A stretch of 64,000 bases of DNA from an uncultured Clostridia bacterium (lineage in GTDB: Bacteria; Bacillota; Dehalobacteriia; UBA4068; CALXSR01): positions 28,547 to 92,546 of the forward strand of contig CALXSR010000010.1 in the NCBI GenBank assembly GCA_944391215.1, read 5' to 3'. Positions 1 to 12,963 of this stretch are shown piece by piece. The notes under the pieces are model-generated. The model worked only from the letters and a program-made list of their open reading frames with translations. It made no database searches and was not told where the DNA came from. The stretch's first letter is position 1, and each line of letters starts with the position of its first letter. The translations under genes and the position numbers were made by a program.

Positions 1-336
1 CCCAGGCAAATAAGAAACAGTTACTGCAATCTGCTTTTGCAAATCCTCTTGAAAATGAGCCAATTCTTGCTGTTGCCAAGAGGAGGCCAATGCTTCTCCC
101 TGTTGTAACACCGCAGTCACTTCGGCATCATATCCATTGGGGTCTTCCAATACAGTGGGTAAAGCAGTATCAAACACAGAAAGAAGCGGGTTTAAAATAA
201 TAACCAATAACAAAAGCCCCATCACCATTCGGGCAAATCTTTGCATATCTCCTTTGGGTAAAAGCATTTCTATAAAAACTGCTAATAAAGTTAACATGGC
301 AATTTGGCGAACCAAATGAATGAAAATATCTATCAT
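1..336 (-). CDS. spoIIIAF: Stage III sporulation protein AF, N-terminal part only (gene runs off the window edge)
   Basis: Minus-strand translation from ATG at 336 gives MIDIFIHLVRQIAMLTLLAVFIEMLLPKGDMQRFARMVMGLLLLVIILNPLL..., which resembles the B. subtilis SpoIIIAF N-terminus (hydrophobic segment then MQKYAKMV-like motif). Sits directly downstream of spoIIIAE. Not in the ORF track because no stop falls inside the window. Confidence 0.6.
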   Translation of the reverse strand, partial: MIDIFIHLVRQIAMLTLLAVFIEMLLPKGDMQRFARMVMGLLLLVIILNPLLSVFDTALPTVLEDPNGYDAEVTAVLQQGEALASSWQQQELAHFQEDLQKQIAVTVSYLPG

Positions 337-346
337 ATTGCCGCAC

Positions 347-1507
347 CTACCTGAGCATCATATTGATATTGCCCATAAATACCAGAATTGCAATCATAAA
401 AAAGAACAAAAGCCCCACCGCGCCAACTGCGGCAAAAACCAAGGTTAAGGCACTGGATAAACCGCTTAAAGCATCCGATAAACGGTCTTCTCCCAAGGGT
501 TGAATTACCGCTCCCACAAAACGATATAGCAAAGACATCGCCATAATTTTAATAGCGGGAAAAGCACAAAGGAATAGAATGACAATCATCCCCAAAATAC
601 CCAATGCCGATTTTAATAGCAAAGCAGTCCCCATTACCGTATCCATGGCATCCGCCAAAGAACGGCCAATGACAGGAATAAAAGTACCGGCAGCCATTTT
701 TGCCGCCTTCAATTTTAACCCGTCTACAGAAGCACCAGCAAAGCCCATAATACCCATAAAACCGGAAAATACCGCTAAGCTAATGGTTAAGGTTCCTAAA
801 GAAATATCGCGACATAAGGACGCCATTTTGCCAATATTAAAGCGACTAGAAACCTGACTCAACATTTTTAAAATAGCTGTAATATAAATGAAAGGAAACA
901 CCACCGTATGAATGATGGTAGTCATAAGAGCCAAAGCTGCCAACATCATCGGATGGACCAAGGAAACCCCGGCTACACCTCCCATAGCAGCCAACAACAT
1001 GGAAAGCAAAGGAACAATCGCATAAATAAAATCTGTCATACGAGTAATAACGGCTTGCGCTTCTTGCATAACACCCGTAAAAGTCGCTAAACTAATCGCT
1101 ACCAAAGCCAAGTAAATAATCCCTTGCGCCAAAGGCGCAATACTACCGTTGGCAAACGCCTCTTGCAAACTATGTAAAACCAAAGCCGCAATCGCCAAAA
1201 CAATTAATTGCGCCAAGAGAGGGAGGCTGGCCGCAATCTGTTGGAAGAAAAGTTTACCGGCAATAGAAAATAAACTTTGCCAACTAAATTCATAATTACC
1301 GCTTTTTAACTCCTGCCATAAATCGCTAAATCGAAATTCCCCTATTTCCATATCATGATCCATTTCCTGCAAAAACTGTTCTAATTCTGTAAAATCAACA
1401 TCCGTAGTTGGATCAACGATATCTTGTGCCCAGGCCAGTTGTGGATAAAAAAACAGGAAAGATAAAACCACCAATAAGCTACAAAGATACTTTCCCTTTT
1501 TTTTCAT
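347..1507 (-). CDS. spoIIIAE: Stage III sporulation protein AE (polytopic membrane protein with signal peptide)
   Basis: 386 aa, N-terminal signal peptide then multiple TM helices. Position in an AA-AB-AC-AD-AE-AF gene order. Confidence 0.85.
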   Translation of the reverse strand: MKKKGKYLCSLLVVLSFLFFYPQLAWAQDIVDPTTDVDFTELEQFLQEMDHDMEIGEFRFSDLWQELKSGNYEFSWQSLFSIAGKLFFQQIAASLPLLAQLIVLAIAALVLHSLQEAFANGSIAPLAQGIIYLALVAISLATFTGVMQEAQAVITRMTDFIYAIVPLLSMLLAAMGGVAGVSLVHPMMLAALALMTTIIHTVVFPFIYITAILKMLSQVSSRFNIGKMASLCRDISLGTLTISLAVFSGFMGIMGFAGASVDGLKLKAAKMAAGTFIPVIGRSLADAMDTVMGTALLLKSALGILGMIVILFLCAFPAIKIMAMSLLYRFVGAVIQPLGEDRLSDALSGLSSALTLVFAAVGAVGLLFFFMIAILVFMGNINMMLR

Positions 1508-1524
1508 TTTATTCTCTCCTAACT

Positions 1525-1917
1525 TTATGGTAGCAATCGCAATACAGATTCTAAAACCGCTACCATAATGGGTAAGGCCATCGCCATTACTAAAACTTTA
1601 GCGGCAAATTCCACTTTCGTCGCCAAAGCATTTTGATTTGCGTCTCGACAAACTTGACCGCAAAATTCCGCAATATAGGTAACAGCCATTATCTTCAAAA
1701 TTGTAGAAAGATAAAATTGATTTAATCCGGCTTTTTCTGTTAGTTGCTGAAAGATAACAAATATTTCTCCTAACTGTGGCAATACTCGCAAAAATAATAT
1801 GATACCGGCTGCTAAAGGGATCATCAAAGCCAAAACAGGCATTTTCCCTTCTTTGACAAAAACAGCCATAATAGCAGCCACAATGGCCAAAGCTGCCAAT
1901 GGGATTATTGTTTGCAA
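1525..1917 (-). CDS. spoIIIAD: Stage III sporulation protein AD
   Basis: 130 aa small polytopic membrane protein. Size and position match SpoIIIAD. Confidence 0.85.
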   Translation of the reverse strand: MQTIIPLAALAIVAAIMAVFVKEGKMPVLALMIPLAAGIILFLRVLPQLGEIFVIFQQLTEKAGLNQFYLSTILKIMAVTYIAEFCGQVCRDANQNALATKVEFAAKVLVMAMALPIMVAVLESVLRLLP

Positions 1918-1934
1918 AAGCCCACCCCCAAGCT

Positions 1935-2135
1935 TCAGTAAAGTTTAAAAACACTTTGTACCTGCGCAAAAAGTTCCGCCAATAAGGGCAATACTTTAAT
2001 TAAAGCAATCGCCAAACCAACCACTAAAGTTAAATAAGCATATTCATCCCGGCCAGCTTGTTTTAAAAAAGTATGCACAATGGTTACGGCAATGGCTAAA
2101 CCAGTCAAAAAAAAGATTAAACTTGCATCAATCAT
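1935..2135 (-). CDS. spoIIIAC: Stage III sporulation protein AC
   Basis: 66 aa two-TM protein. Size and operon position match SpoIIIAC. Confidence 0.85.
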   Translation of the reverse strand: MIDASLIFFLTGLAIAVTIVHTFLKQAGRDEYAYLTLVVGLAIALIKVLPLLAELFAQVQSVFKLY

Positions 2136-2147
2136 ATTATCTATCTC

Positions 2148-2666
2148 CTAAAATAAGATTAGTATTAAAACAAAACCCAAAGCAATACTGAGGCTTTGCC
2201 GCACCTTAGCCAATTTTTCTTTTTCTTTTTGCGCTATCTCTTCTTGTGCTTGCAGCCGCACCCTTAATAAAGTCAATCTTTTTAATTGATCTTCTCCATC
2301 CGATAGCCCCAAGTTTTCTCCCATCAAAGAAGCGATTTGGATATCATCTTTTTTAAGGGAAAGAGTATTTTTTTTCTCCTGTAAACTCTTTTGCCAGGCT
2401 TCCCCCGCGGTAAACCCAATACCAGCTTGCAATTTTTGAGCTGTCCCCGTAAAAACACTTTGCAAATCGCCAGCCTGACCGGCAGCCTGTTGAAATGCTT
2501 GAGGCAACGGCGTTGCCCCGTAGCCAATCTCCGTTTCTAAAGCTAAAATACCCCTTTGTAAAGAAGCTAGCTGTTGTGGCCGCCGAATTAAATCAACTGT
2601 AGATAAGCGACCTGCTACCACGGAAGAACATAAGATAAAAATTGCCCCCAACAGCTTCCAAATCAT
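2148..2666 (-). CDS. spoIIIAB: Stage III sporulation protein AB
   Basis: 172 aa with N-terminal TM and C-terminal TM. Position between AA and AC. 4-nt overlap with spoIIIAA. Confidence 0.75.
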   Translation of the reverse strand: MIWKLLGAIFILCSSVVAGRLSTVDLIRRPQQLASLQRGILALETEIGYGATPLPQAFQQAAGQAGDLQSVFTGTAQKLQAGIGFTAGEAWQKSLQEKKNTLSLKKDDIQIASLMGENLGLSDGEDQLKRLTLLRVRLQAQEEIAQKEKEKLAKVRQSLSIALGFVLILILF

Positions 2667-3625
2667 CCTATCGCCCCCCGTAATTGGCGGAATTGATTAT
2701 CGTAAATACCCTCTATCGTACCTGGTCCTTTTCTACGGGATAACACAATATATCGATGAAAAATACCAGCTGCCGCTAATTCCTTCAAAACAGGTCTGTT
2801 TTGCATATCGGCAATATCGCTTCCATGGGCGCTGGCAATGATGGTTACCCCACATAAAGAAGCATTCCATACCGCCCCGATATCCGCTGGATTCCCCAAT
2901 TCATCCGTAATTAAAATATCGGGCGCAAAAGCACGTACCATCAAAGGTAATCCTTGTTCCTTTGGACAACCGCTTAAAATATCGCAATGACAACCAATAT
3001 CCATTTGCGCCAATCCATCACGGGAACCAGCAATTTCCGATCTTTCATCTACAATGCCCACTTGTTTTGGTATTTTTCCTCCGCTGCCATCGGCTAAAGT
3101 TCTAGAAATATCCCGCAATATCGTCGTTTTTCCGGCCCTCGGCGGTGAAATGATCAGGGTGTCCAAAACAGAATTGTCTTGCCACAAATAGGGTAAAATC
3201 TCTTGAGCTGCCCCCGGCACCTCCTTAGCAATGCGGATATTTAAGCAATTGATATTTTTCAGTGTTTTTAGCTCTCCATGACCTACCACCCCTTGCCCGG
3301 ATAAACCTACCCGATGGCCGCCAGGCAAAGTAAGATATCCCCAGCGCAATTCTTCTTCCAAGGCATATAAAGAGCTATCCGCCAATAAAAGAACCGTTTT
3401 ATTCATTTCTTCCCGCGTTAAGCAATATGCATGATTGTAACTGCTTTCTATATTACCTTGCGCATTTAACCAATAGTCTTTTTGAGCAGTACGCAAACAA
3501 ACAGGCTGACTGGTACGCAACCGAATTTCTTCTAAAGATAGTAAAAATTCCGGAGGCAAAGCAGAAAAAAGTTTTTTTAAACTAGGCGCCAAAAACTGTA
3601 AAATCATCGCAAAATCAGTACACAA
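2663..3625 (-). CDS. spoIIIAA: Stage III sporulation protein AA (secretion-type ATPase)
   Basis: 320 aa with Walker A SPPRAGKTT. First codon is TTG at 3625, preceded by RBS GGAAGGGGG 9 nt upstream. First gene of the operon. Confidence 0.85.
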   Translation of the reverse strand: MCTDFAMILQFLAPSLKKLFSALPPEFLLSLEEIRLRTSQPVCLRTAQKDYWLNAQGNIESSYNHAYCLTREEMNKTVLLLADSSLYALEEELRWGYLTLPGGHRVGLSGQGVVGHGELKTLKNINCLNIRIAKEVPGAAQEILPYLWQDNSVLDTLIISPPRAGKTTILRDISRTLADGSGGKIPKQVGIVDERSEIAGSRDGLAQMDIGCHCDILSGCPKEQGLPLMVRAFAPDILITDELGNPADIGAVWNASLCGVTIIASAHGSDIADMQNRPVLKELAAAGIFHRYIVLSRRKGPGTIEGIYDNQFRQLRGAIG

Positions 3626-3650
3626 CTCTTTGTCCCCCTTCCTTTATGGA

Positions 3651-3678
3651 ATATGTATGAAAAGGCTTGCCCCAATAG
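3651..3678 (-). promoter_or_regulatory. Putative sigma-E-type sporulation promoter for the spoIIIA operon
   Basis: Minus strand reads CTATT, 14 nt, CATACATAT, ending about 25 nt upstream of the spoIIIAA TTG start. It resembles the sigma-E consensus (ATATT-like -35, CATACA-T -10). B. subtilis spoIIIA is sigma-E dependent. Consensus is recalled from memory. Confidence 0.3.
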
Positions 3679-3681
3679 AAC

Positions 3682-3717
3682 AAAAAAAACCCGTCCCTCA
3701 AAAGAGGAACGGGTTTA
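3682..3717 (-). terminator. Rho-independent terminator after the acidic Cys-rich protein gene
   Basis: cccgtccctc aaaa gaggaacggg hairpin followed on the minus strand by TTTTTTTT. Near-palindromic with an A-run on the plus side, so possibly bidirectional. Confidence 0.7.
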
Positions 3718-3740
3718 TCTGGTCTTTAAATTATAAAATT

Positions 3741-4184
3741 TTATTTTTGTTCTTCTTCCGAACCACAGCAGCAACCGGGTTCGCAGCAACCATCTTCTTC
3801 ATCTAAAAAGCAAGCGTCATCATTATCAAAAACAACGGCACCACAATTTGGGCAAGTAACTTCAATCGGTTCATCAGCTGTAAGAATGTCGCTTTCAAAA
3901 CAAACTTCTTCACCGCAATCCGGACATTCCACGGTTACAAAGTCATCTTCCTCCTCGTCTTCTTCATAGAAGTCGTCTTCTAAATCAGCCAAATCACTAT
4001 CCAAGCTTTCCACATATTCTTCTAATTCTTCTTGTTCTTCATACAAATCGTCGATGGAATCGGCCATATCTTCCAATACGTCCAAAACCTCCAATAGTAA
4101 TTTACCTTCTTTGCTTTCAGTGTTAATGTCTAAACCATCGGCCAATCCTTTTAAATAGGAAACCTTTTTTTCTAAACTAGTCAT
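3741..4184 (-). CDS. Highly acidic protein with two CxxC zinc-ribbon-like pairs and a C-terminal Cys cluster; conserved efp-spoIIIA neighbour in Clostridia-like genomes
   Basis: 147 aa, very D/E rich, CPDCG...CPNCG pairs and C-terminal CCEPGCCCGSEEE. Strong RBS GGAGGGAGG. Own terminator downstream. Confidence 0.6.
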   Translation of the reverse strand: MTSLEKKVSYLKGLADGLDINTESKEGKLLLEVLDVLEDMADSIDDLYEEQEELEEYVESLDSDLADLEDDFYEEDEEEDDFVTVECPDCGEEVCFESDILTADEPIEVTCPNCGAVVFDNDDACFLDEEDGCCEPGCCCGSEEEQK

Positions 4185-4223
4185 AATAAGTTACCTCCCT
4201 CCAAAATCCTTTCTTAATATTTC

Positions 4224-4781
4224 CTAAGCACGTTCAATATAATCCCCCGTTTTTGTATTTACACGAATGCGGTCCCCCACATTGATGAAAAACGGTACGC
4301 GCACAATCACCCCAGTTTCCAAAGTAGCCGGCTTATTTCCACCGGAAGCGGTATCGCCTTTAATACCGGGTTCCGTTTCCACTACTTCCAATTCCACCTG
4401 TGTGGGCAAATCAACACCCAAAACATTTCCTTGATAGTATAAAGCAATCACATTCATTTCTTCTTTTAAATATTTAACGCCATCGCCTAACTGCTCTTCA
4501 GATAAAGGCACTTGTTCATAAGATTGGTTATCCATAAAAATATAAGATTCCCCGTCATGATACAAATATTGCATTTCTCTTCTTTCTAATATAGCATTTT
4601 GGAATTTTTCCCCGGCATTAAATGTTTTTTCCAAAACAGCGCCCGTGCGAACATTTTTTAATTTGGTTCTTACAAAGGCAGAACCTTTTCCAGGTTTTAC
4701 ATGCTGAAAATCAACAATTACATAAGCATCGCCATCAATTTCTATGGAAACGCCCGTTTTAAAATCATTGGTGGAAATCAC
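4224..4781 (-). CDS. efp: Translation elongation factor P
   Basis: [42 protein letters not shown] matches the EF-P N-terminus. Start re-called to GTG at 4781 (185 aa) with a GGGGG RBS 7 nt upstream. The ORF-track N-terminal extension [12 protein letters not shown] is probably untranslated. Confidence 0.9.
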
Positions 4782-4884
4782 AAAAAAACCCCCTACATCA
4801 CAAGTATCTTTTTTCACGGAACTTTGTCCAGTATCTTTATTATTTTACCACAAAACAAATACAATAAACAATGGGCAAACAAAA

Positions 4885-4910
4885 AGAGCTGATAAAAATC
4901 AGCTCTTTTC
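4885..4910 (-). terminator. Terminator downstream of rplS
   Basis: agagctgat aaaa atcagctct hairpin followed on the minus strand by TTTTTGTTTG. Also T-rich on the plus side. Confidence 0.65.
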
Positions 4911-4914
4911 TTAT

Positions 4915-5259
4915 TTATTTACGAATTTCTTTAATTCTGGCGGCTTTACCAGTTAAATTGCGCAAATAATATAATTTTGCCCGACGAATTTTCCCTCGGC
5001 GTACCACTTCAATTTTTTCAATACGTGGCGAATGAAGCGGGAAAGTTCTTTCTACACCAATCCCATAACTTACCCGACGCACGGTAAAGGTTTCGCTCAA
5101 ACCACCGCCATGACGACGGATGCAAATGCCTTCAAATACCTGAATCCGTTCCCTGGAGCCTTCTACAATTTTTGCATTCACTTTTAAAGTATCCCCCGGA
5201 CGGAACTGAGGAATGTCCTGACGCAGTTGTTCTTGTTCCACTGCTTTAATTAAATCCAT
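4915..5259 (-). CDS. rplS: 50S ribosomal protein L19
   Basis: [27 protein letters not shown]... is a typical L19. Start at ATG 5259 with an AGGAGG RBS. The ORF-track 12-aa extension is rejected. Confidence 0.9.
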
Positions 5260-5362
5260 AAGTTTTCCTCCTTCCTTAAGAACGTTCATTCCCATCTAGC
5301 ATGGCAGAGGACCGTTCTGCTTTTGCACCTACAAACACGCAAATTATTATAACACAACTTTT

Positions 5363-6679
5363 TTACCAAGGCAAGGGCTGTCTGGAAAAATTCTCCCCCT
5401 GCAAGCGGTCAAGAATAATGGCAGCCGCGGAACGCACCGAAAGATGATTATACGGACCTTGCCCATAAATTGGCCGCAAATGAAAATCGCAAGAAGCAAT
5501 CATTTCATCTGTTAAGCCCCAGCCTGTTCCAAACAAAAGCAAATAATTGCCGCCTTTTTCTCGCATTTGTTTCCGCATGGTCGGATAATCCATCATTTTA
5601 TCATTTGGTTTGGCGCTCGTAGAAATAAGATATAATGGCGCATCGTTTTTTTGTTTTATTTCTATCAACGCTTCCGATAAATCAGCAATCAAACGAACGC
5701 AGGATACCGCTTCATGGCGGTCCGGATTATAAGCGCCGCCAAACCCATCCTGCCAATGGCCAATTAACTGTCCAATCAATGCTCTTTGACTTTCCCCCGG
5801 TTGCACAATAAAATAGTTTTCCACGCCAAAGGTTACCGCCGAGCGGGCAATATCATGCAAATCCAAATTGGTTAAAGAAGTATTGATAATTTGTTTCTTT
5901 TTATTATAAACCGGATAATGCAATAAGGCCACATATAATCGGTAAGGCTTTTCTTTCTCCTGCCTTACCTTTTGTAAATATACCATATCGTCTTGCGTTA
6001 AAGGGGCCTGTTCTAACAAATCCGGTCTTCTTTCCAAAGTCACCTTCAAACTTTCCTGTCGTCGATATTGGGCAATTTCTTTATGATTTCCGTTTAATAA
6101 AGGTTGCGGCACACTTTTCCCCCGAAATTCCGGCGGCCGAGTATATTGCGGATATTCCAATAAACCGGCGCTAAAACTTTCTTCCTCCGCCGATGCTTCA
6201 TCGCCTAAAACCCCAGGTATCAACCGAACAATACTTTCTACCATCGCCATCGTTGGAATTTCCCCGCCGGTTAATACAAAATCACCAATCGACAAAATAT
6301 CGGTAGCCAATTCTTCCTCTACTCTTTGATCAATGCCCTCATAATGTCCACATATAAAAATCAACTGCTCGGCTTCACGCAATTCCCGCGCTTTTTGTTG
6401 GGTAAAAAGTTCCCCCCGCGGGCTGGTAATAATAACACGCGTCTTCCCCTTTTTTTGCATACAATCTTCCACAGCGGCAAAAATAGGCTCCGGTTTCATT
6501 ACCATGCCAGCTCCACCGCCATATAAACGGTCATCCGTAATTTGATGTTTATCGGTTGTATAATCGCGAATATTCGTTATTTGAATTTCTGCCAATCCTT
6601 TATTTTGCGCCCTTTTCATCATACTTTCTTGCAAAGGGCCAAACATGGCTGGAAACAAAGTCAAAATATCAATACGCAT
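5363..6679 (-). CDS. trmD: tRNA (guanine37-N1)-methyltransferase TrmD fused in frame to a C-terminal second SPOUT-like methyltransferase domain
   Basis: Residues 1 to about 240 are TrmD (MRIDILTLFP...GGGAGMVM...GHYEGIDQR). Residues about 250 to 438 carry a separate knotted-methyltransferase-like tail ending LSVRSAAAIILDRL. Single uninterrupted ORF. Confidence 0.85.
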   Translation of the reverse strand: MRIDILTLFPAMFGPLQESMMKRAQNKGLAEIQITNIRDYTTDKHQITDDRLYGGGAGMVMKPEPIFAAVEDCMQKKGKTRVIITSPRGELFTQQKARELREAEQLIFICGHYEGIDQRVEEELATDILSIGDFVLTGGEIPTMAMVESIVRLIPGVLGDEASAEEESFSAGLLEYPQYTRPPEFRGKSVPQPLLNGNHKEIAQYRRQESLKVTLERRPDLLEQAPLTQDDMVYLQKVRQEKEKPYRLYVALLHYPVYNKKKQIINTSLTNLDLHDIARSAVTFGVENYFIVQPGESQRALIGQLIGHWQDGFGGAYNPDRHEAVSCVRLIADLSEALIEIKQKNDAPLYLISTSAKPNDKMMDYPTMRKQMREKGGNYLLLFGTGWGLTDEMIASCDFHLRPIYGQGPYNHLSVRSAAAIILDRLQGENFSRQPLPW

Positions 6680-6688
6680 GCTTTTCTC

Positions 6689-7192
6689 CTATTCCATTAA
6701 GCCTTGTGGTAATTGTACCATCATTTTTTGATTTTCTACATCAATTTCATGGATAAATTCTTTTATTGCCGGTATCATAAAGGTTTTACCGTTTTCTTGC
6801 TCTACCACATAATAGTCCGTCCCGCCGCGACTATCAATTGCTATTATCTTTCCTAATAGTATTTCCTTTTGACAAACCGCCATCCCAATCAACTGAAAAT
6901 GATAATAACTACCTTCTGGTAAAACAGGCAAATCGGTTTTATCAACCAATAAATAGGAAGGGCAAGCCTTTTCCGCATCATTGCGATCTGGCAGTTCCTC
7001 AAAGGATAATAAAAGCCCGCCTTTATAGGGTTCACTTTGTAGTATCGTTACATATTGTTGTGTTTTTTCTAAAAAAAGACGAGTGCCTTTTTGAAAACGG
7101 GCTGGATTATCGCTAATACATTCCACTTTAACCTGCCCTTTTATTCCATGAACACCGTAAATACGTCCTACGATGATAGTTTCCTTTTTCAT
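6689..7192 (-). CDS. rimM: 16S rRNA processing protein RimM
   Basis: MKKETIIVGRIYGVHGIKGQVKV is the RimM N-terminus, with a PRC barrel at the C-terminus. Start re-called to ATG 7192. The ORF-track 34-aa Lys/Arg-rich extension overlaps the upstream MFS gene end and is rejected. Confidence 0.85.
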   Translation of the reverse strand: MKKETIIVGRIYGVHGIKGQVKVECISDNPARFQKGTRLFLEKTQQYVTILQSEPYKGGLLLSFEELPDRNDAEKACPSYLLVDKTDLPVLPEGSYYHFQLIGMAVCQKEILLGKIIAIDSRGGTDYYVVEQENGKTFMIPAIKEFIHEIDVENQKMMVQLPQGLME

Positions 7193-7205
7193 CCGTTTCC
7201 CCTTT

Positions 7206-8453
7206 TTATTCCGTTTTTTCTTGCGTCCGATACCGCAACGAAGCCTTTTGCGCGATTCGGAATACCATAAAAATAACAACTGCGATAGCAGCATAACATA
7301 ATAACATAAAACGATAACTTCCAGTTAAATCATAACTAAAATTTAATAATGGCGCCCCGCAGGCCACCCCGGCGGCCAGCGTTGCCAAAAAAATACCCAC
7401 TATGGTGGAATATCCTTTTAAACCAAATAAATCCGTTGCCAAAAAAGTAATAATTAAAGTTTCTAAAGGCAAAGAAAAGCCCAAAAGCAAGGCATAGGCA
7501 ATGGCCATCCATTCTGTTTTTGCAAAAGCCAAAAATAAAATTGCTGCCAAATAGGCAATAATGCAAATTAGCATACTGGTATGTAAATTCCATTTATCAT
7601 AAATCCAGCCAATACTTAATTTAGCAAAAGCCAAAGACAAATAAACCATACCGGAAATACCTGCCGCAAAGTGCACATCAAAACCCCTATCGGTTAAATG
7701 TGCCGGGGCGGAAAGTACAACCGGGTTGGTAATTAAACCAATTAAAAAAATAAGCAAAACAGTCAAATAAAAATATGGCTGATGAAAAGCCTCTTTGGCA
7801 CTTGAGCCCTGCCAATAGGCAGTTTTTGTGGTTTTCTCCTTGCTATTTTCCAATCCATAAGCAACCAGTCCCTTGTCTGCAGGATGATTACGAACCAATA
7901 ATAAAATCGGAACCATAGCACAAAGCATAATCATGCTAGATATCAAATAAGATTGTCGCCAACCCATATCGGCAATCCAGTTTCCTACCAACATATTAAA
8001 AAGAAAGCCCCCAACACCGCTGCCGGCAAAAATAAGACCTAAAATGGTTCCCCTATGTTTTGCAAACCAATTATTGATCAAGCTGGAAATTACGGCAGTA
8101 GAGGCAAAAGAAAATGCTGCCCCTAATAAAATACCGCCAACATAAAAAAGCGGTAATTGAGCGGCAATAGAAAATAAAAACATGGCGCCTGCAGCAAACA
8201 GCATTCCAATAGACATCATTTTATGCATACCAAAAATGCCCACCAGGAAACCAAAAGAGAGGTTTAAAATTACCGAAGTGACAGAGCGTAAACTATGCGT
8301 AATGGAATAAGCGCCTCGGGTAAATCCAAGCGACTCCGTAATTGGAGTCACATAAAGACCATTTGGAGAATTTCCTAAGCCCAATAAAACAAAAGAGCTA
8401 ATAAAACAGGCTAAAACCACAAACCACCCATAAAAAACCTTTTTTTGTTTCAT
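7206..8453 (-). CDS. MFS transporter, 12 TM, oxalate/formate-antiporter-like; substrate unknown
   Basis: 415 aa polytopic protein of MFS architecture. Lies between the KH-domain gene and rimM inside the rpsP operon. Confidence 0.8.
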   Translation of the reverse strand: MKQKKVFYGWFVVLACFISSFVLLGLGNSPNGLYVTPITESLGFTRGAYSITHSLRSVTSVILNLSFGFLVGIFGMHKMMSIGMLFAAGAMFLFSIAAQLPLFYVGGILLGAAFSFASTAVISSLINNWFAKHRGTILGLIFAGSGVGGFLFNMLVGNWIADMGWRQSYLISSMIMLCAMVPILLLVRNHPADKGLVAYGLENSKEKTTKTAYWQGSSAKEAFHQPYFYLTVLLIFLIGLITNPVVLSAPAHLTDRGFDVHFAAGISGMVYLSLAFAKLSIGWIYDKWNLHTSMLICIIAYLAAILFLAFAKTEWMAIAYALLLGFSLPLETLIITFLATDLFGLKGYSTIVGIFLATLAAGVACGAPLLNFSYDLTGSYRFMLLCYAAIAVVIFMVFRIAQKASLRYRTQEKTE

Positions 8454-8527
8454 GTTCTCTTTTCCCCTATTTCATAATAAGGAGAGTCAAAAACAAGGTT
8501 GCTTCAGACTCTCCTCAATATGCTTGT

Positions 8528-8755
8528 CTATTCGATTTCCAAATCGGCTTTTTTGCCTTCCTTGGCGGCAACCGCTTTTAAAACAGAACGCATTGCTTTT
8601 GCAATTCGTCCTTGCTTTCCGATTACTTTTCCCATATCATCGGATGCAACATGCAAAGTCAAGGAGATGACGCCGTCATTTTCGGTTTCCGTCACCACAA
8701 TTTCCTCCGGATGTTCCACCAAAGCTTTTACCATATATTCCACGAGCTCTTTCAA
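8528..8755 (-). CDS. KH-domain RNA-binding protein (YlqC/UPF0109 family)
   Basis: 75 aa with GKVIGKQGRIAKAMR KH motif. Immediately downstream of rpsP. Confidence 0.8.
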   Translation of the reverse strand: MKELVEYMVKALVEHPEEIVVTETENDGVISLTLHVASDDMGKVIGKQGRIAKAMRSVLKAVAAKEGKKADLEIE

Positions 8756-8797
8756 AATTCTCCCTCCTTAGGAGTGCGCGTAAAAAAGCGGCGAAAA

Positions 8798-9046
8798 TTA
8801 TTTTACGCCGGCTTTTTTGAATAATACTTTCACGGTTTCGGAAACTTCCGCACCTTCCGCCATCCATTTATTGGCTTTTTCTGCATCCACTTTAATTTCA
8901 GCAGGTTCGGTCAAAGGATTATAATAGCCGATTTGTTCAATAAAACGGCCATCTCTAGGAGAACGGGAATCCGCTACTACGATACGATAGAAAGGCGCTT
9001 TTTTAGCTCCCATTCTTTTTAATCTAATTTTTGTTGCCAAGGTCAT
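8798..9046 (-). CDS. rpsP: 30S ribosomal protein S16
   Basis: [44 protein letters not shown] is canonical S16. Confidence 0.9.
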
Positions 9047-9074
9047 TCACCTCCTTATAGAAATATCATAAAAC

Positions 9075-10427
9075 CTAAAACGGTAATTTAAACATGCCCT
9101 TTTTCTTGCCTTTTTTCCCCATGGCCGCCGCTTGATTGCTCGCCATTTTCATCATCTTTTGGGTTTCAGCAAACTTCTTCAATAACCGATTTACATCCTG
9201 CACTTGGGTCCCGCTCCCTTGCGCGATTCTTCTTTTCCGGGAGGCATTGATCATATCCGGCTTAATTCTTTCCTCCTTGGTCATAGACTGAATAATCGCT
9301 TCCATACGGGAAAATTCCTTTTCATCCACTTGAATATTTTTTAGCTGTTTACCAATATTGCCCGGCATCATACTAATGATATCTTGAATATCGCCCATTT
9401 TCTTCATTTGTTCCAGTTGATCTAAAAAATCCTCAAAGGTAAAGCTGGCATTACGTATTTTGGCTTCCATTTCTAAAGCTTTTTTTTCATCAACCGCAAT
9501 TTGGGCCTTTTCAATTAAGGTTAAAACATCTCCCATGCCCAAAATACGGGAAGAAAGCCGATCGGGGTAAAAAGGCTCAATGGCGTCTAGTTTTTCCCCC
9601 TGCCCGACAAACTTAATGGGTTGCCCGGTCACCGCTTTTACAGAAAGAGCTGCCCCACCTCTGGTATCCCCATCTAATTTGGTTAATACTAAACCGGTAA
9701 TGCCCAAATCGGCATGAAACGCTTCCGCTACATTTACCGCATCCTGCCCCGCCATGGCATCCACTACCAGCAAAATTTCACTTGGATTTACTTCAGCCTT
9801 AATATTTTTTAGTTCCGCCATCAATTCTTCATTGACATGTAAACGCCCGGCAGTATCAATAAAAACAAAATCATTGCCATGCGTCCTGGCATGCGCCAAA
9901 GATTCTTTGGCAATACGCACTGGATCATTGCAACCATCCAAGCTAAAAACCGGGATTTCTGCATTTTCTCCTAAAACTTGCAATTGTTTAATGGCCGCAG
10001 GACGATAAATATCCGCCGCTACCAAAAGGGGTCTTCGGCCCTGCTTTTTCATTAAATTGGCTATTTTAGCGCTGCTTGTTGTTTTCCCAGAACCTTGCAA
10101 ACCAACCATCATTACCACGGTAGGCGGATGCGAAGATATATTTATTTTTGCCTGTTCCGGCCCCATTAAGGCAGTTAATTCTTCATGAACAATTTTAATA
10201 ACTTGTTGTCCGGGACTTAAACTTTCTAAAACATCGGCTCCCAAAGCTTTTTCTTTAATACGAGCCACAAAATCTTTTACTACTTTATAACTAACATCGG
10301 CTTCTAATAAGGCCAAACGAATTTCCCGCATGGCTTCGTTAATATCTGCTTCGCTCAAGCGCCCTTTGCCGGTTAGCTTTTTGAATGTTGCTTGTAATTT
10401 ATCCGCTAAATTTGCAAAAACTGCCAT
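9075..10427 (-). CDS. ffh: Signal recognition particle protein Ffh
   Basis: 450 aa with an SRP54 N domain, a GTPase domain (GLQGSGKTT, DTAGR, TKLDGD) and a Met-rich M domain. Confidence 0.95.
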   Translation of the reverse strand: MAVFANLADKLQATFKKLTGKGRLSEADINEAMREIRLALLEADVSYKVVKDFVARIKEKALGADVLESLSPGQQVIKIVHEELTALMGPEQAKINISSHPPTVVMMVGLQGSGKTTSSAKIANLMKKQGRRPLLVAADIYRPAAIKQLQVLGENAEIPVFSLDGCNDPVRIAKESLAHARTHGNDFVFIDTAGRLHVNEELMAELKNIKAEVNPSEILLVVDAMAGQDAVNVAEAFHADLGITGLVLTKLDGDTRGGAALSVKAVTGQPIKFVGQGEKLDAIEPFYPDRLSSRILGMGDVLTLIEKAQIAVDEKKALEMEAKIRNASFTFEDFLDQLEQMKKMGDIQDIISMMPGNIGKQLKNIQVDEKEFSRMEAIIQSMTKEERIKPDMINASRKRRIAQGSGTQVQDVNRLLKKFAETQKMMKMASNQAAAMGKKGKKKGMFKLPF

Positions 10428-10437
10428 TCTATCAGCC

Positions 10438-10794
10438 TCATTCTTCCACTATTTGCTCCAAAAGCCGCAACGCTTCTGGCAATTTCTCCATACTTTCTGC
10501 TTGCATTGCCTGTTCAATACAATGTTCTGCTTCCTTCACCAGTCTTTTTACCTGTAAAAACCGTTTTGCTAATCCTAATTTTTCTTCATAACCGTATAAT
10601 AATTTTTCGCTTTTTTTAATCGCATCATGCGCTGCCTGTCTGGTTATATGCAAAGAAGAAGCAATTTCCCCTAAAGAATAATCTTCCTCCAAAAAAAGAC
10701 TCATTGTTTCTCTTTGCCGGGCAGTAAGCAATTCCCCGTAAAAATCAAATAATAAAGTCAATTCTCCAATTTTTTCTACCAAACGGTTTTCCAT
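10438..10794 (-). CDS. ylxM: YlxM/UPF0122 putative helix-turn-helix protein preceding ffh
   Basis: Start re-called to ATG 10794 with an AGGAGA RBS. The sigma-70 region-4-like motif LTARQRE...SLGEIASSLHITRQAAHDAIK is typical of the YlxM family. Confidence 0.75.
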   Translation of the reverse strand: MENRLVEKIGELTLLFDFYGELLTARQRETMSLFLEEDYSLGEIASSLHITRQAAHDAIKKSEKLLYGYEEKLGLAKRFLQVKRLVKEAEHCIEQAMQAESMEKLPEALRLLEQIVEE

Positions 10795-10821
10795 TTTTCT
10801 TCTCCTATCAAGTAAAAAAAC

Positions 10822-10866
10822 TTGACAGAGCCTATTATAATAAAAACAACAGGCTCTGTCAAGCAA
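10822..10866 (-). promoter_or_regulatory. Consensus sigma-A promoter embedded in a perfect 12-bp inverted repeat (candidate operator, possibly also the mtaD terminator)
   Basis: Minus strand: TTGACA, 17 nt, TATAAT. The inverted repeat TTGACAGAGCCT, 17 nt, AGGCTCTGTCAA has one arm on the -35 box and one across the +1 region. On the minus strand the stem is followed by GTTTTTTTA. Confidence 0.6.
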
Positions 10867-10892
10867 AATAACTTGATATTACTTCTTATATT

Positions 10893-12188
10893 TTATGCCA
10901 ATATCCTAGGAAAACGGTTGTAACATTCAAAACGAATACGCTCTGTGTCCAATGTTTTCATTTCTCTTTTTTCCATAATGATTTTACCATTGATAATCAC
11001 GCTTTGCACATCGGATCCTTGCGCTGAATACACCAAATGAGATATCAAATCATAAGGCGGTAAAAAGTGCGGCTGCTTACAATCCAGCAAAATAAAATCA
11101 GCCAAATTACCTTTTTGTAAAACACCTGCCTGTGGAAAACCAAGATAAGAAAAAGCATCTCTGGTCGCCATCGTCAAAGCTTGTTCTGCAGGTATGGCCA
11201 AAGGATTATACAGCCGTCCTTTCGCCAACAAACTACCCTGACGCATTTCCAAAAATAAGTTTAAATCATTATTGCTACAAGCGCCATCCGTACCAAAACC
11301 CAGGCCCACATTTTTTTGTAACAGCTCATAGCTTTTAGCCATGCCGTTGCCCAATTTTAAATTACTGCGCGGACAATGCGCTATTTTCACTCCGTATTGG
11401 GCTAAAATATTCTCATCTTCTTCTGTTAGCCATACAGCATGCGCTGCTATCGTCGGATTATCAAAACAACCTAATTCTGCTAAATAGGCGGTTGGGGTAG
11501 TTCCGTGTTTTTTCCTGCAATCATCAAATTCCTGCTTAGTCTCAGCTAAATGAATATGCAGCATGGTTTGATATTTTTGAGCAATTTCACTGATCTTTCG
11601 TAATAGCATTTCACTGCATGTATAAATCGCATGCGGGGCAAAGGCTACCTGAATACGGCCATGATCCGCTCCATGCCAATTTTGATACAAAGCAATATTT
11701 TCAGCCAATCTCTCATTCCCATCTTGCCAATCACCTACAATCCCACGGCTTAAAACAGCCCGCAGTCCGGACTGATCCACCGCCTGCGCAATTTCATCTA
11801 CAAAAAAATACATATCATTACAGCAGGTGGTTCCGCTTTCTATCATTTCCCATAAAGCCAACTGGGTAGCCCAAAGAATATCTTCCGCCTGCCATCTATC
11901 TTCAGCCGGATACACTCTTGTTTCCAACCACTTTTGCAATGGCAAATCATCCCCGTAACTGCGCAAATAACTCATGGGCAAATGGGTATGCATATTCACC
12001 AAACCAGGCATAACCAAATAATCTTGGCCTTCTATAACCTTCCGCGCTTCGCAATTTATATTTGGTTCAATAGCGGCAATTCTTTGTCCTTCTACTGCAA
12101 TATCAGCAATAAAAGGTTTACGCAAACTTCCATCAGGCGTGGTTTCCATAGAAAGTATGGTAGCTTGCCGAACTAAAATATCATACAT
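10893..12188 (-). CDS. mtaD: 5-methylthioadenosine/S-adenosylhomocysteine deaminase (amidohydrolase superfamily)
   Basis: 431 aa with the HTHLPMS metal-binding motif. Family assignment from typical MtaD/TRZ-ATZ amidohydrolase features. Confidence 0.8.
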   Translation of the reverse strand: MYDILVRQATILSMETTPDGSLRKPFIADIAVEGQRIAAIEPNINCEARKVIEGQDYLVMPGLVNMHTHLPMSYLRSYGDDLPLQKWLETRVYPAEDRWQAEDILWATQLALWEMIESGTTCCNDMYFFVDEIAQAVDQSGLRAVLSRGIVGDWQDGNERLAENIALYQNWHGADHGRIQVAFAPHAIYTCSEMLLRKISEIAQKYQTMLHIHLAETKQEFDDCRKKHGTTPTAYLAELGCFDNPTIAAHAVWLTEEDENILAQYGVKIAHCPRSNLKLGNGMAKSYELLQKNVGLGFGTDGACSNNDLNLFLEMRQGSLLAKGRLYNPLAIPAEQALTMATRDAFSYLGFPQAGVLQKGNLADFILLDCKQPHFLPPYDLISHLVYSAQGSDVQSVIINGKIIMEKREMKTLDTERIRFECYNRFPRILA

Positions 12189-12195
12189 ACTTTTC

Positions 12196-12963
12196 CTACC
12201 TTCCGCAACAAGGGCTATGTTGTATCATTTGCATATCCGGGATAGCCCGGGCGATTATTTTCAATACTTTTTCTTTATTGGCTGCAAAAATAGATTCTAC
12301 TTCCTGATGCGCCAAATGATCTAACAATCCAGCTCCATAATTGGTAATTAAGGATATATTCGCAAAGCAAATACCCAATTCTCTTAACAAAACCGCCTCC
12401 GTAGCGGCAGTCATGCCCACCACATCGCCCCCCAAGCGATCAAACATTTGAATTTCCGCTGCCGTTTCAAAACGCGGGCCCTCGGTACAGACATAAGTCC
12501 CATAAGGCACCACCAAAATCCCTTCTTTGGCAGCCGCTTGCAATAAACAAGTACGCAATTCTTCACAAAAAGGGAAACTAATATCCGTATGCACCACCCG
12601 GCCATCGTCCCCGTCAAAAAAGGTAAAAGGGCGTGCTTTGGTAAAATCCAAAAACTGATCGCATAGTACAATCGTACCGGGATGTTGATTGCGCCGCAAG
12701 CCGCCTACTGCATTCACTCCTATCGCTTTGTCTACCCCTAACTGTTGCAGGGCCATCATATTTGCTCGATAGGGAATCGCATGCGGCGGAATATGGTGAT
12801 CTTTCCCATGACGCATCAAAAGAATAATCTCCGTACCATCCGGCATAGAAACAGGCACATAATTTACTTCCCCATATGCAGTTTCAATCGTCATTTCTTC
12901 ATCGGTTTGGAATATTTCGCTACCGTCAAAACCTGTCCCGGCAATCAAGGCAATTTTACCCAT
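12196..12963 (-). CDS. mtnP: S-methyl-5'-thioadenosine phosphorylase (PNP/MTAP family)
   Basis: MGKIALIAGTGFD N-terminus, PNP/MTAP-type fold motifs. Adjacent to mtaD. Confidence 0.7.
   Translation of the reverse strand: MGKIALIAGTGFDGSEIFQTDEEMTIETAYGEVNYVPVSMPDGTEIILLMRHGKDHHIPPHAIPYRANMMALQQLGVDKAIGVNAVGGLRRNQHPGTIVLCDQFLDFTKARPFTFFDGDDGRVVHTDISFPFCEELRTCLLQAAAKEGILVVPYGTYVCTEGPRFETAAEIQMFDRLGGDVVGMTAATEAVLLRELGICFANISLITNYGAGLLDHLAHQEVESIFAANKEKVLKIIARAIPDMQMIQHSPCCGR

Follow-up and report, generated by a model that had tools for sequence, protein, structure and literature searches.

Introduction

The essential tRNA methyltransferase TrmD uses S-adenosylmethionine (SAM) to methylate N1 of G37 (m1G37) in tRNAs that contain G36-G37 and decode codons with C in the first position, a modification that averts +1 frameshifting. 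Here we describe a gene in which TrmD and a second SPOUT-class domain, Tm1570, are encoded as one polypeptide. The gene lies in a 64,000-nucleotide (nt) stretch of DNA from an uncultured Clostridia bacterium (assembly GCA_944391215.1, contig CALXSR010000010.1, positions 28,547 to 92,546), the whole of which we call the window. An earlier note, made from the letters of the window, had drawn attention to this open reading frame (ORF) as trmD joined in frame to a second knotted methyltransferase-like domain.

The closest described system is the TrmD-Tm1570 fusion of Calditerrivibrio nitroreducens, which has a crystal structure (8B1N) and was published as the first protein to be doubly knotted (PMC11187310; bioRxiv 10.1101/2023.03.13.532328). 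This protein crystallized as a homodimer with an antiparallel TrmD pair, a perpendicular Tm1570 pair, a 3_1#3_1 double knot, and SAM in both knots (bioRxiv 10.1101/2023.03.13.532328); the two domains of one chain are scarcely in contact. The C. nitroreducens fusion refolds, dimerizes, and catalyzes G37-dependent methylation of tRNA-Leu(CAG) (PMC11187310). Perlinska et al. counted 66 proteins with the PF01746-PF09936 architecture in Pfam at that time, distinguished four arrangements of the trmD and Tm1570 genes (distant, adjacent, overlapping, and fused), and assigned the Tm1570 domain a probable role in TrmJ-like 2'-O-methylation, with its physiological function unknown (PMC11187310).

Tm1570 of Thermotoga maritima (3DCM; COG4752 / PF09936, formerly DUF2168) is a stand-alone protein, in contrast to the single polypeptide described here, and its gene overlaps trmD by 7 nt (PMC11187310). 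COG4752/TM1570 was entered as 'unknown' in a 2007 survey of SPOUT proteins, and a literature search on Tm1570, PF09936, and DUF2168 turned up no later paper giving a substrate, only the description 'unknown, TrmJ-like'; the earlier note had likewise left the second domain without an assigned substrate, in agreement with the published record (PMC11187310). Single-domain TrmD enzymes, such as those of Staphylococcus aureus (3KY7/9SDV) and Haemophilus influenzae (4YVI), occupy the same operon place between rimM and rplS, but the window protein has an additional 190-residue SPOUT domain beyond the C-terminal helix.

An ortholog of the C. nitroreducens TrmD-Tm1570 fusion

The gene occupies positions 5363..6679 on the minus strand, which the earlier note had not stated, and in the ORF listing it is uninterrupted for 1317 nt, with an ATG start, 438 codons, and a TAA stop at 5363..5365. 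Its product is an ordinary ortholog of the published, structurally solved TrmD-Tm1570 fusion, an architecture that was already known. Residues 2-427 aligned with PDB entry 8b1n_A with an E-value of 1.7e-127 and a gap-free linker, and 8b1n_A was also the best match in a Foldseek search with an AlphaFold2 (AF2) model of the full-length protein (E-value 1.3e-50, 428 columns, 44% identity). We consider it very probable that the window protein is an ortholog of this bifunctional-looking, doubly knotted SPOUT enzyme, with the mechanism and origin proposed below. The domain order is the same in both proteins, which are of similar length (433 residues in C. nitroreducens, 438 here), and in each domain the SAM-knot motifs are common to them. 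Differences include the wall loop, which reads GHYEG in the window protein versus GRYEG in C. nitroreducens, as in S. aureus TrmD, and the phylum of origin, which is Deferribacterota for C. nitroreducens and Bacillota here, the window coming from a metagenome-assembled genome (MAG) of a spore-former with a spoIIIA operon nearby. Moreover, the C. nitroreducens protein has been assayed, whereas the window ortholog is known from its sequence and predicted structure.

Residues 1-240 (positions 5960..6679, minus strand) form the first trefoil-knot SPOUT domain and are canonical TrmD, as the earlier note had read them. PF01746 (tRNA_m1G_MT) matched residues 21-219 with an E-value of 3.5e-65 and 219.8 bits (cutoff 27.3), and the NCBIfam TrmD equivalogs NF000648 and TIGR00088 matched residues 1-225 with 314.6 bits (cutoff 220) and 301.9 bits (cutoff 195), respectively. 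The loops of the TrmD SAM knot are present as SPRG (residues 86-89), GHYEGI (111-116), and SIGDFVLTGGE (130-140), followed by AEEESF (164-169), LLE (173-175), and NGNH (196-199), the last corresponding to the (S/N)GNH tRNA-G37 motif. By alignment, the cover, wall, and bottom loops, the acidic Mg2+/catalytic residues, and NGNH appear to correspond to residues named for the C. nitroreducens and H. influenzae enzymes. Foldseek comparison of the AF2 model with solved TrmD structures gave template-modeling (TM) scores of 0.79-0.84, and S. aureus TrmD was 50% identical to the N-terminal 240 residues (TM 0.83). On the basis of orthology, we infer that this domain uses SAM to make m1G37.

Residues 247-427 (positions 5399..5941, minus strand) form the Tm1570 domain, a SpoU-class SPOUT RNA methyltransferase domain. 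PF09936 (Methyltrn_RNA_4) matched residues 248-427 with an E-value of 9.4e-74 and 247.6 bits (gathering score 22.6), covering positions 2-181 of the 182 in the model, so that the C-terminal ~190 residues do constitute the separate SPOUT methyltransferase-like domain that had been proposed. This domain also matched the isolated Tm1570 domain in entry 8ri0 and T. maritima TM1570 in entry 3dcm; in the AF2 model it has a clear methyltransferase fold, with a TM score of 0.93 to 3dcm. The window protein keeps all columns that are invariant in the family, 38 in a 29-sequence alignment (A2) and 36 in another (A1), including N271/D273/H275/D276/R279, G384-T-G-W-G388, and N411-H-L-x-V-R416. When a C-domain family profile was compared with the PDB, TrmJ of Sulfolobus acidocaldarius ranked next behind the Tm1570 entries (E-value 0.0026), and weak matches to SpoU_methylase (3.6e-5) and the TrmJ/YjtD family (3.2e-4) were found in Pfam and NCBIfam. 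The domain nevertheless falls outside the TrmJ family (COG0565 / TIGR00050), with a score of 20.7 bits (cutoff 167.15), and shares only 16-21% identity with TrmJ, a tRNA Cm32/Um32 2'-O-methyltransferase (4CNF, 4XBO, 5GRA); the likeness is one of fold only. Structural neighbors in the SpoU class include many rRNA 2'-O-methyltransferases (AviRb, RlmB, YsgA, NHR, and MRM3).

A short linker (EKEKPY, residues ~241-246, positions 5942..5959, minus strand), bounded by the domain limits, connects the last TrmD helix, at the C-terminal end of that domain, with the first Tm1570 strand, and the domain junction lies here, in the QEKEKPY region. The full-length AF2 monomer had a predicted local distance difference test score (pLDDT) of 84.9 and a predicted TM score (pTM) of 0.55, and its global TM score to 8b1n was 0.48, compared with 0.8-0.93 for the single domains, a combination that would fit a flexible or unfixed domain orientation in the model. 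The protein ends in ...LSVRSAAAIILDRLQGENFSRQPLPW, and the motif quoted in the earlier note as the C terminus corresponds to residues 413-426, with 12 more residues beyond it. The last 11 residues (GENFSRQPLPW, residues 428-438, positions 5366..5398, minus strand) form a non-conserved tail; pLDDT is <50 for residues 430-438, and in the family alignment the chains of relatives end variably, shortly past ...LDRLxGE.

The fusion is a genuine single reading frame

In principle, adjacent or overlapping trmD and Tm1570 genes could have been merged into an artefactual single ORF by an indel or a lost stop, an idea that gains some plausibility from nearby lineages in which the genes are split, either by an in-frame stop (locus L006) or as overlapping ORFs in different frames (Lucifera butyrica, L029; Sporomusa acidovorans, L043), and from stand-alone Tm1570 genes that are separated from trmD, or overlap it, by 8-11 nt, such that one indel could fuse them. 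The evidence effectively refutes this explanation. The exact 438-residue sequence is present in the public protein collection, from both NCBI and ENA, and the 1317-nt gene showed 0 nt differences from the copies in ENA ERZ27349973 k87_3907406 (L082) and NCBI GCA_947853085.1 CANTWB010000119.1 (L083). A fourth copy, in the Logan assembly of the unrelated run SRR13292351 (L081), is 98% identical and keeps the 438-codon frame. It differs at 26 of 1317 nt, 23 of these differences being synonymous, and carries two residue changes, D72N and T367A. The differences that flank the junction (gene nt 675, 684, 735, 753, 759, and 768) are six third-codon-position changes in one frame. Because the L081 differences are mostly synonymous and those beside the junction fall at third positions of the same frame, the whole ORF is best explained as one translated frame under purifying selection. 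Neither a stop nor a frame change was present at the junction in the four assemblies compared; the earlier note had placed this point near 5950..5990, close to the linker at 5942..5959 found here, and had named a stop or frameshift at read level as the observation that would divide the gene in two. The gap-free alignment of the linker with the crystallized fusion and the fused state of 6 of the 9 closest relatives among the one-genome-per-species contigs, and of all 120 best protein matches, likewise speak against an artefact.

The junction also contains a GGAG at codons 240-241 and an in-frame GTG (V250). Internal restart at this GTG to yield a separate Tm1570 protein seems unlikely from the sequence, as the spacing of ~24 nt exceeds a normal Shine-Dalgarno distance.

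Gene arrangement and fusion history among relatives

For the survey of relatives, we inspected contigs from a collection with one genome per species (loci L001-L007, L029, and L043). The six closest relatives are MAGs labeled Clostridiales, Bacillota, Clostridia, or Peptococcaceae, with 48-63% identity. A single fused ORF was found in L001-L005 and in a Synergistales MAG (L007, 39% identity), whereas in L006 a stop separates two ORFs that share one frame, and the L. butyrica and S. acidovorans genes are two ORFs in different frames, overlapping or abutting. In a full-length search, the best 120 matches were all 420-466 residues long with both Pfam domains and 57-76% identity; the named matches (Bacillota, Peptococcaceae, Dehalobacterium, and Candidatus Formimonas warabiya) carry just the NCBI label 'TrmD'. 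The survey adds a large clade within the Peptococcaceae-like Bacillota in which fused proteins predominate.

A search with the C-terminal domain returned 5473 matches, mainly stand-alone 'RNA methyltransferase' proteins of ~185-200 residues, and a library of 50%-identity representatives contained 648 members of the PF09936 family at E <= 1e-10. Among the best 150 representatives plus the window protein (n = 151), 22 were complete fusions, 119 were stand-alone proteins, and 10 had a partial N-terminal extension and are fusions cut by contig ends. Unfused Tm1570 genes adjoined the 3' end of trmD in 7 of 7 cases (L006, L029, L043, and L084-L087), which bears out the statement in the earlier note that the tail resembles proteins found next to trmD in other genomes. 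Of four stand-alone genes inspected, those of Desulfitobacterium and a Deltaproteobacteria MAG are separated from trmD by gaps of 11 and 9 nt, those of a 'Chitinophagales' MAG and Thermincola potens overlap it by 11 and 8 nt, and all four lie between trmD and rplS. In T. potens (CP002028.1, L087), a DDE_Tnp_1 transposase gene is present at 3793..5097, between the stand-alone Tm1570 gene and rplS. Throughout the relatives examined, the trmD/Tm1570 pair was fused, abutting, or overlapping, and always lay between rimM and rplS.

A neighbor-joining tree was built from 148 C-domains (the window protein and 50%-identity representatives). The fused state was scattered over it, with at least 23 state changes; the tree is unbootstrapped and based on a short domain, and gene calling on metagenomic contigs can break genes apart or join them. 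This scatter speaks against a single origin of the fusion, although it is suggestive only, and the sequences suggest instead that trmD and Tm1570 have undergone repeated fusion and fission. The fusion very probably originated from the widespread placement of the Tm1570 gene against or across the 3' end of trmD, once the stop codon of trmD was lost or the frame shifted.

Possible roles of the Tm1570 domain

We propose that the C-terminal domain is a SAM-binding SPOUT enzyme of the SpoU/TrmH class that most likely methylates the ribose 2'-O of RNA. The class of its fold, the motifs it conserves, and the close linkage of its gene to trmD argue for an active SpoU-class methyltransferase, with tRNA 2'-O-methylation as the most likely activity. 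The preferred target would be a second tRNA position within the anticodon loop or close to it, in the manner of TrmJ. From its homology with 8B1N, the window protein would be a homodimer in which each chain has two SAM sites. Several points weigh against this proposal. No Tm1570 domain has a demonstrated activity. The isolated C. nitroreducens Tm1570 domain gave 18 +/- 9% of the fusion signal on tRNA-Leu(CAG), which the authors liken to the no-SAM control, and the fusion was inactive on a G37 mutant (PMC11187310). From these two results, a tRNA-Leu transcript that carries no modifications, at least, does not stand out as a substrate for the second domain. The only pointers to 2'-O chemistry and a tRNA target are fold and profile similarity and gene linkage; the putative dimer and double knot are carried over from 8B1N, the model here being a monomer.

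The biochemistry of the C. nitroreducens protein, in which 86% of the activity remains with the isolated TrmD domain and the isolated Tm1570 domain is close to background, could also be read to mean that Tm1570 is an accessory module that assists TrmD by RNA binding, dimer stabilization, or SAM sensing. We regard this role as improbable, given that SAM is bound in the Tm1570 knot of both 8B1N and 3DCM and that the 38 invariant residues, the SpoU-like motif set included, are shared by fused and stand-alone members and all present in the window protein; the predominance of stand-alone ~190-residue proteins (119/151) further argues for an autonomous enzymatic function. If the domain is an enzyme, its target might be rRNA rather than tRNA, with methylation serving as a step in ribosome biogenesis. 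The surrounding operon (rpsP-khpA-rimM-...-rplS), with its genes for ribosomal proteins and for RimM, a 30S maturation factor, and the many rRNA 2'-O-methyltransferases among the SpoU-class structural neighbors favor this alternative, to which we give some weight but which seems rather unlikely. Returning to a tRNA target, fusion, overlap, or abutment with trmD recurs across phyla, and for this reason TrmD and Tm1570 might form one machine for a shared set of tRNAs, in which Tm1570 adds a 2'-O-methyl group, so far unassigned, within the anticodon loop or close to it, in a step coupled to formation of m1G37. We offer this coupling tentatively, as a possibility that we doubt somewhat more than we believe.

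Operon context and other features of the window

The fusion gene lies within a conserved ffh-rpsP-khpA-rimM-trmD-rplS operon. Directly upstream is rimM (167 residues, 6689..7192, minus strand; PF01782 and PF24986, and a gene call in L082). Its mechanical ORF (6689..7294, 201 residues) reaches 34 codons farther 5' into the end of the neighboring transporter gene; the public start is at 7192. A Shine-Dalgarno sequence read from the DNA (AGGAG, 6686..6690, minus strand) lies 6 nt 5' of the ATG of the fusion gene and shares positions with the rimM stop codon (TAG, 6689..6691), an overlap that may reflect translational coupling within the operon. Downstream, rplS (ribosomal protein L19, 114 residues, 4915..5259, minus strand) begins 103 nt from the fusion gene and is supported by PF01245, gene calls in L081 and L082, and tblastn conservation in relatives. 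The gene directly after rplS is efp (4224..4817, minus strand), as in L001, L002, and L081; the lepB-ylqF-rnhB genes that follow rplS in Desulfitobacterium (L084) are not there in the window.

Between khpA (8528..8755) and rimM, the window contains a gene for a 415-residue major facilitator superfamily transporter (MFS_1, 7206..8453, minus strand) that was present in 0 of 13 related loci examined at this place; in L083, an NCBI assembly of the same species, a single gap splits it into 109 + 262 residues. L082 and L083 are 99.8% identical to window positions 1..10895 and then diverge abruptly upstream of ylxM. The diverging segments (L082 1..1375 and L083 1..1088) carry a BglII-type restriction endonuclease gene, and the window has at 10893..12963 (minus strand), between ftsY and ylxM, an amidohydrolase gene (10893..12188) and a PNP_UDP_1 phosphorylase-family gene (12196..12963). 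This divergence reflects either strain-level variation or a chimeric join.

An ORF at 3741..4184 (minus strand), between efp and spoIIIAA, encodes an extremely acidic 147-residue protein that has a Cys-rich tail and two CPxCG motifs resembling zinc ribbons, and for which a Pfam scan gave no match. An Rfam scan of the window gave no match at the trmD-Tm1570 locus; the sole match at the gathering threshold was an FMN riboswitch (RF00050, 43300..43418, minus strand, 106.5 bits).

Significance

As the architecture, crystal structure, and distribution of TrmD-Tm1570 fusions are already published, the discovery value of this locus is small. The window copy is an unremarkable ortholog from a clade in which fusion is the norm, and nothing in the window sets it apart from hundreds of other fused orthologs. 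For annotation, the NCBI name 'TrmD' alone conceals the second domain. The family itself provides evidence of gene fusion and fission, with the trmD/Tm1570 pair switching many times among fused, overlapping, and abutting states. If TrmD and Tm1570 do act as one machine, then the window ortholog would be one more handle on an orphan family of RNA-modification enzymes.
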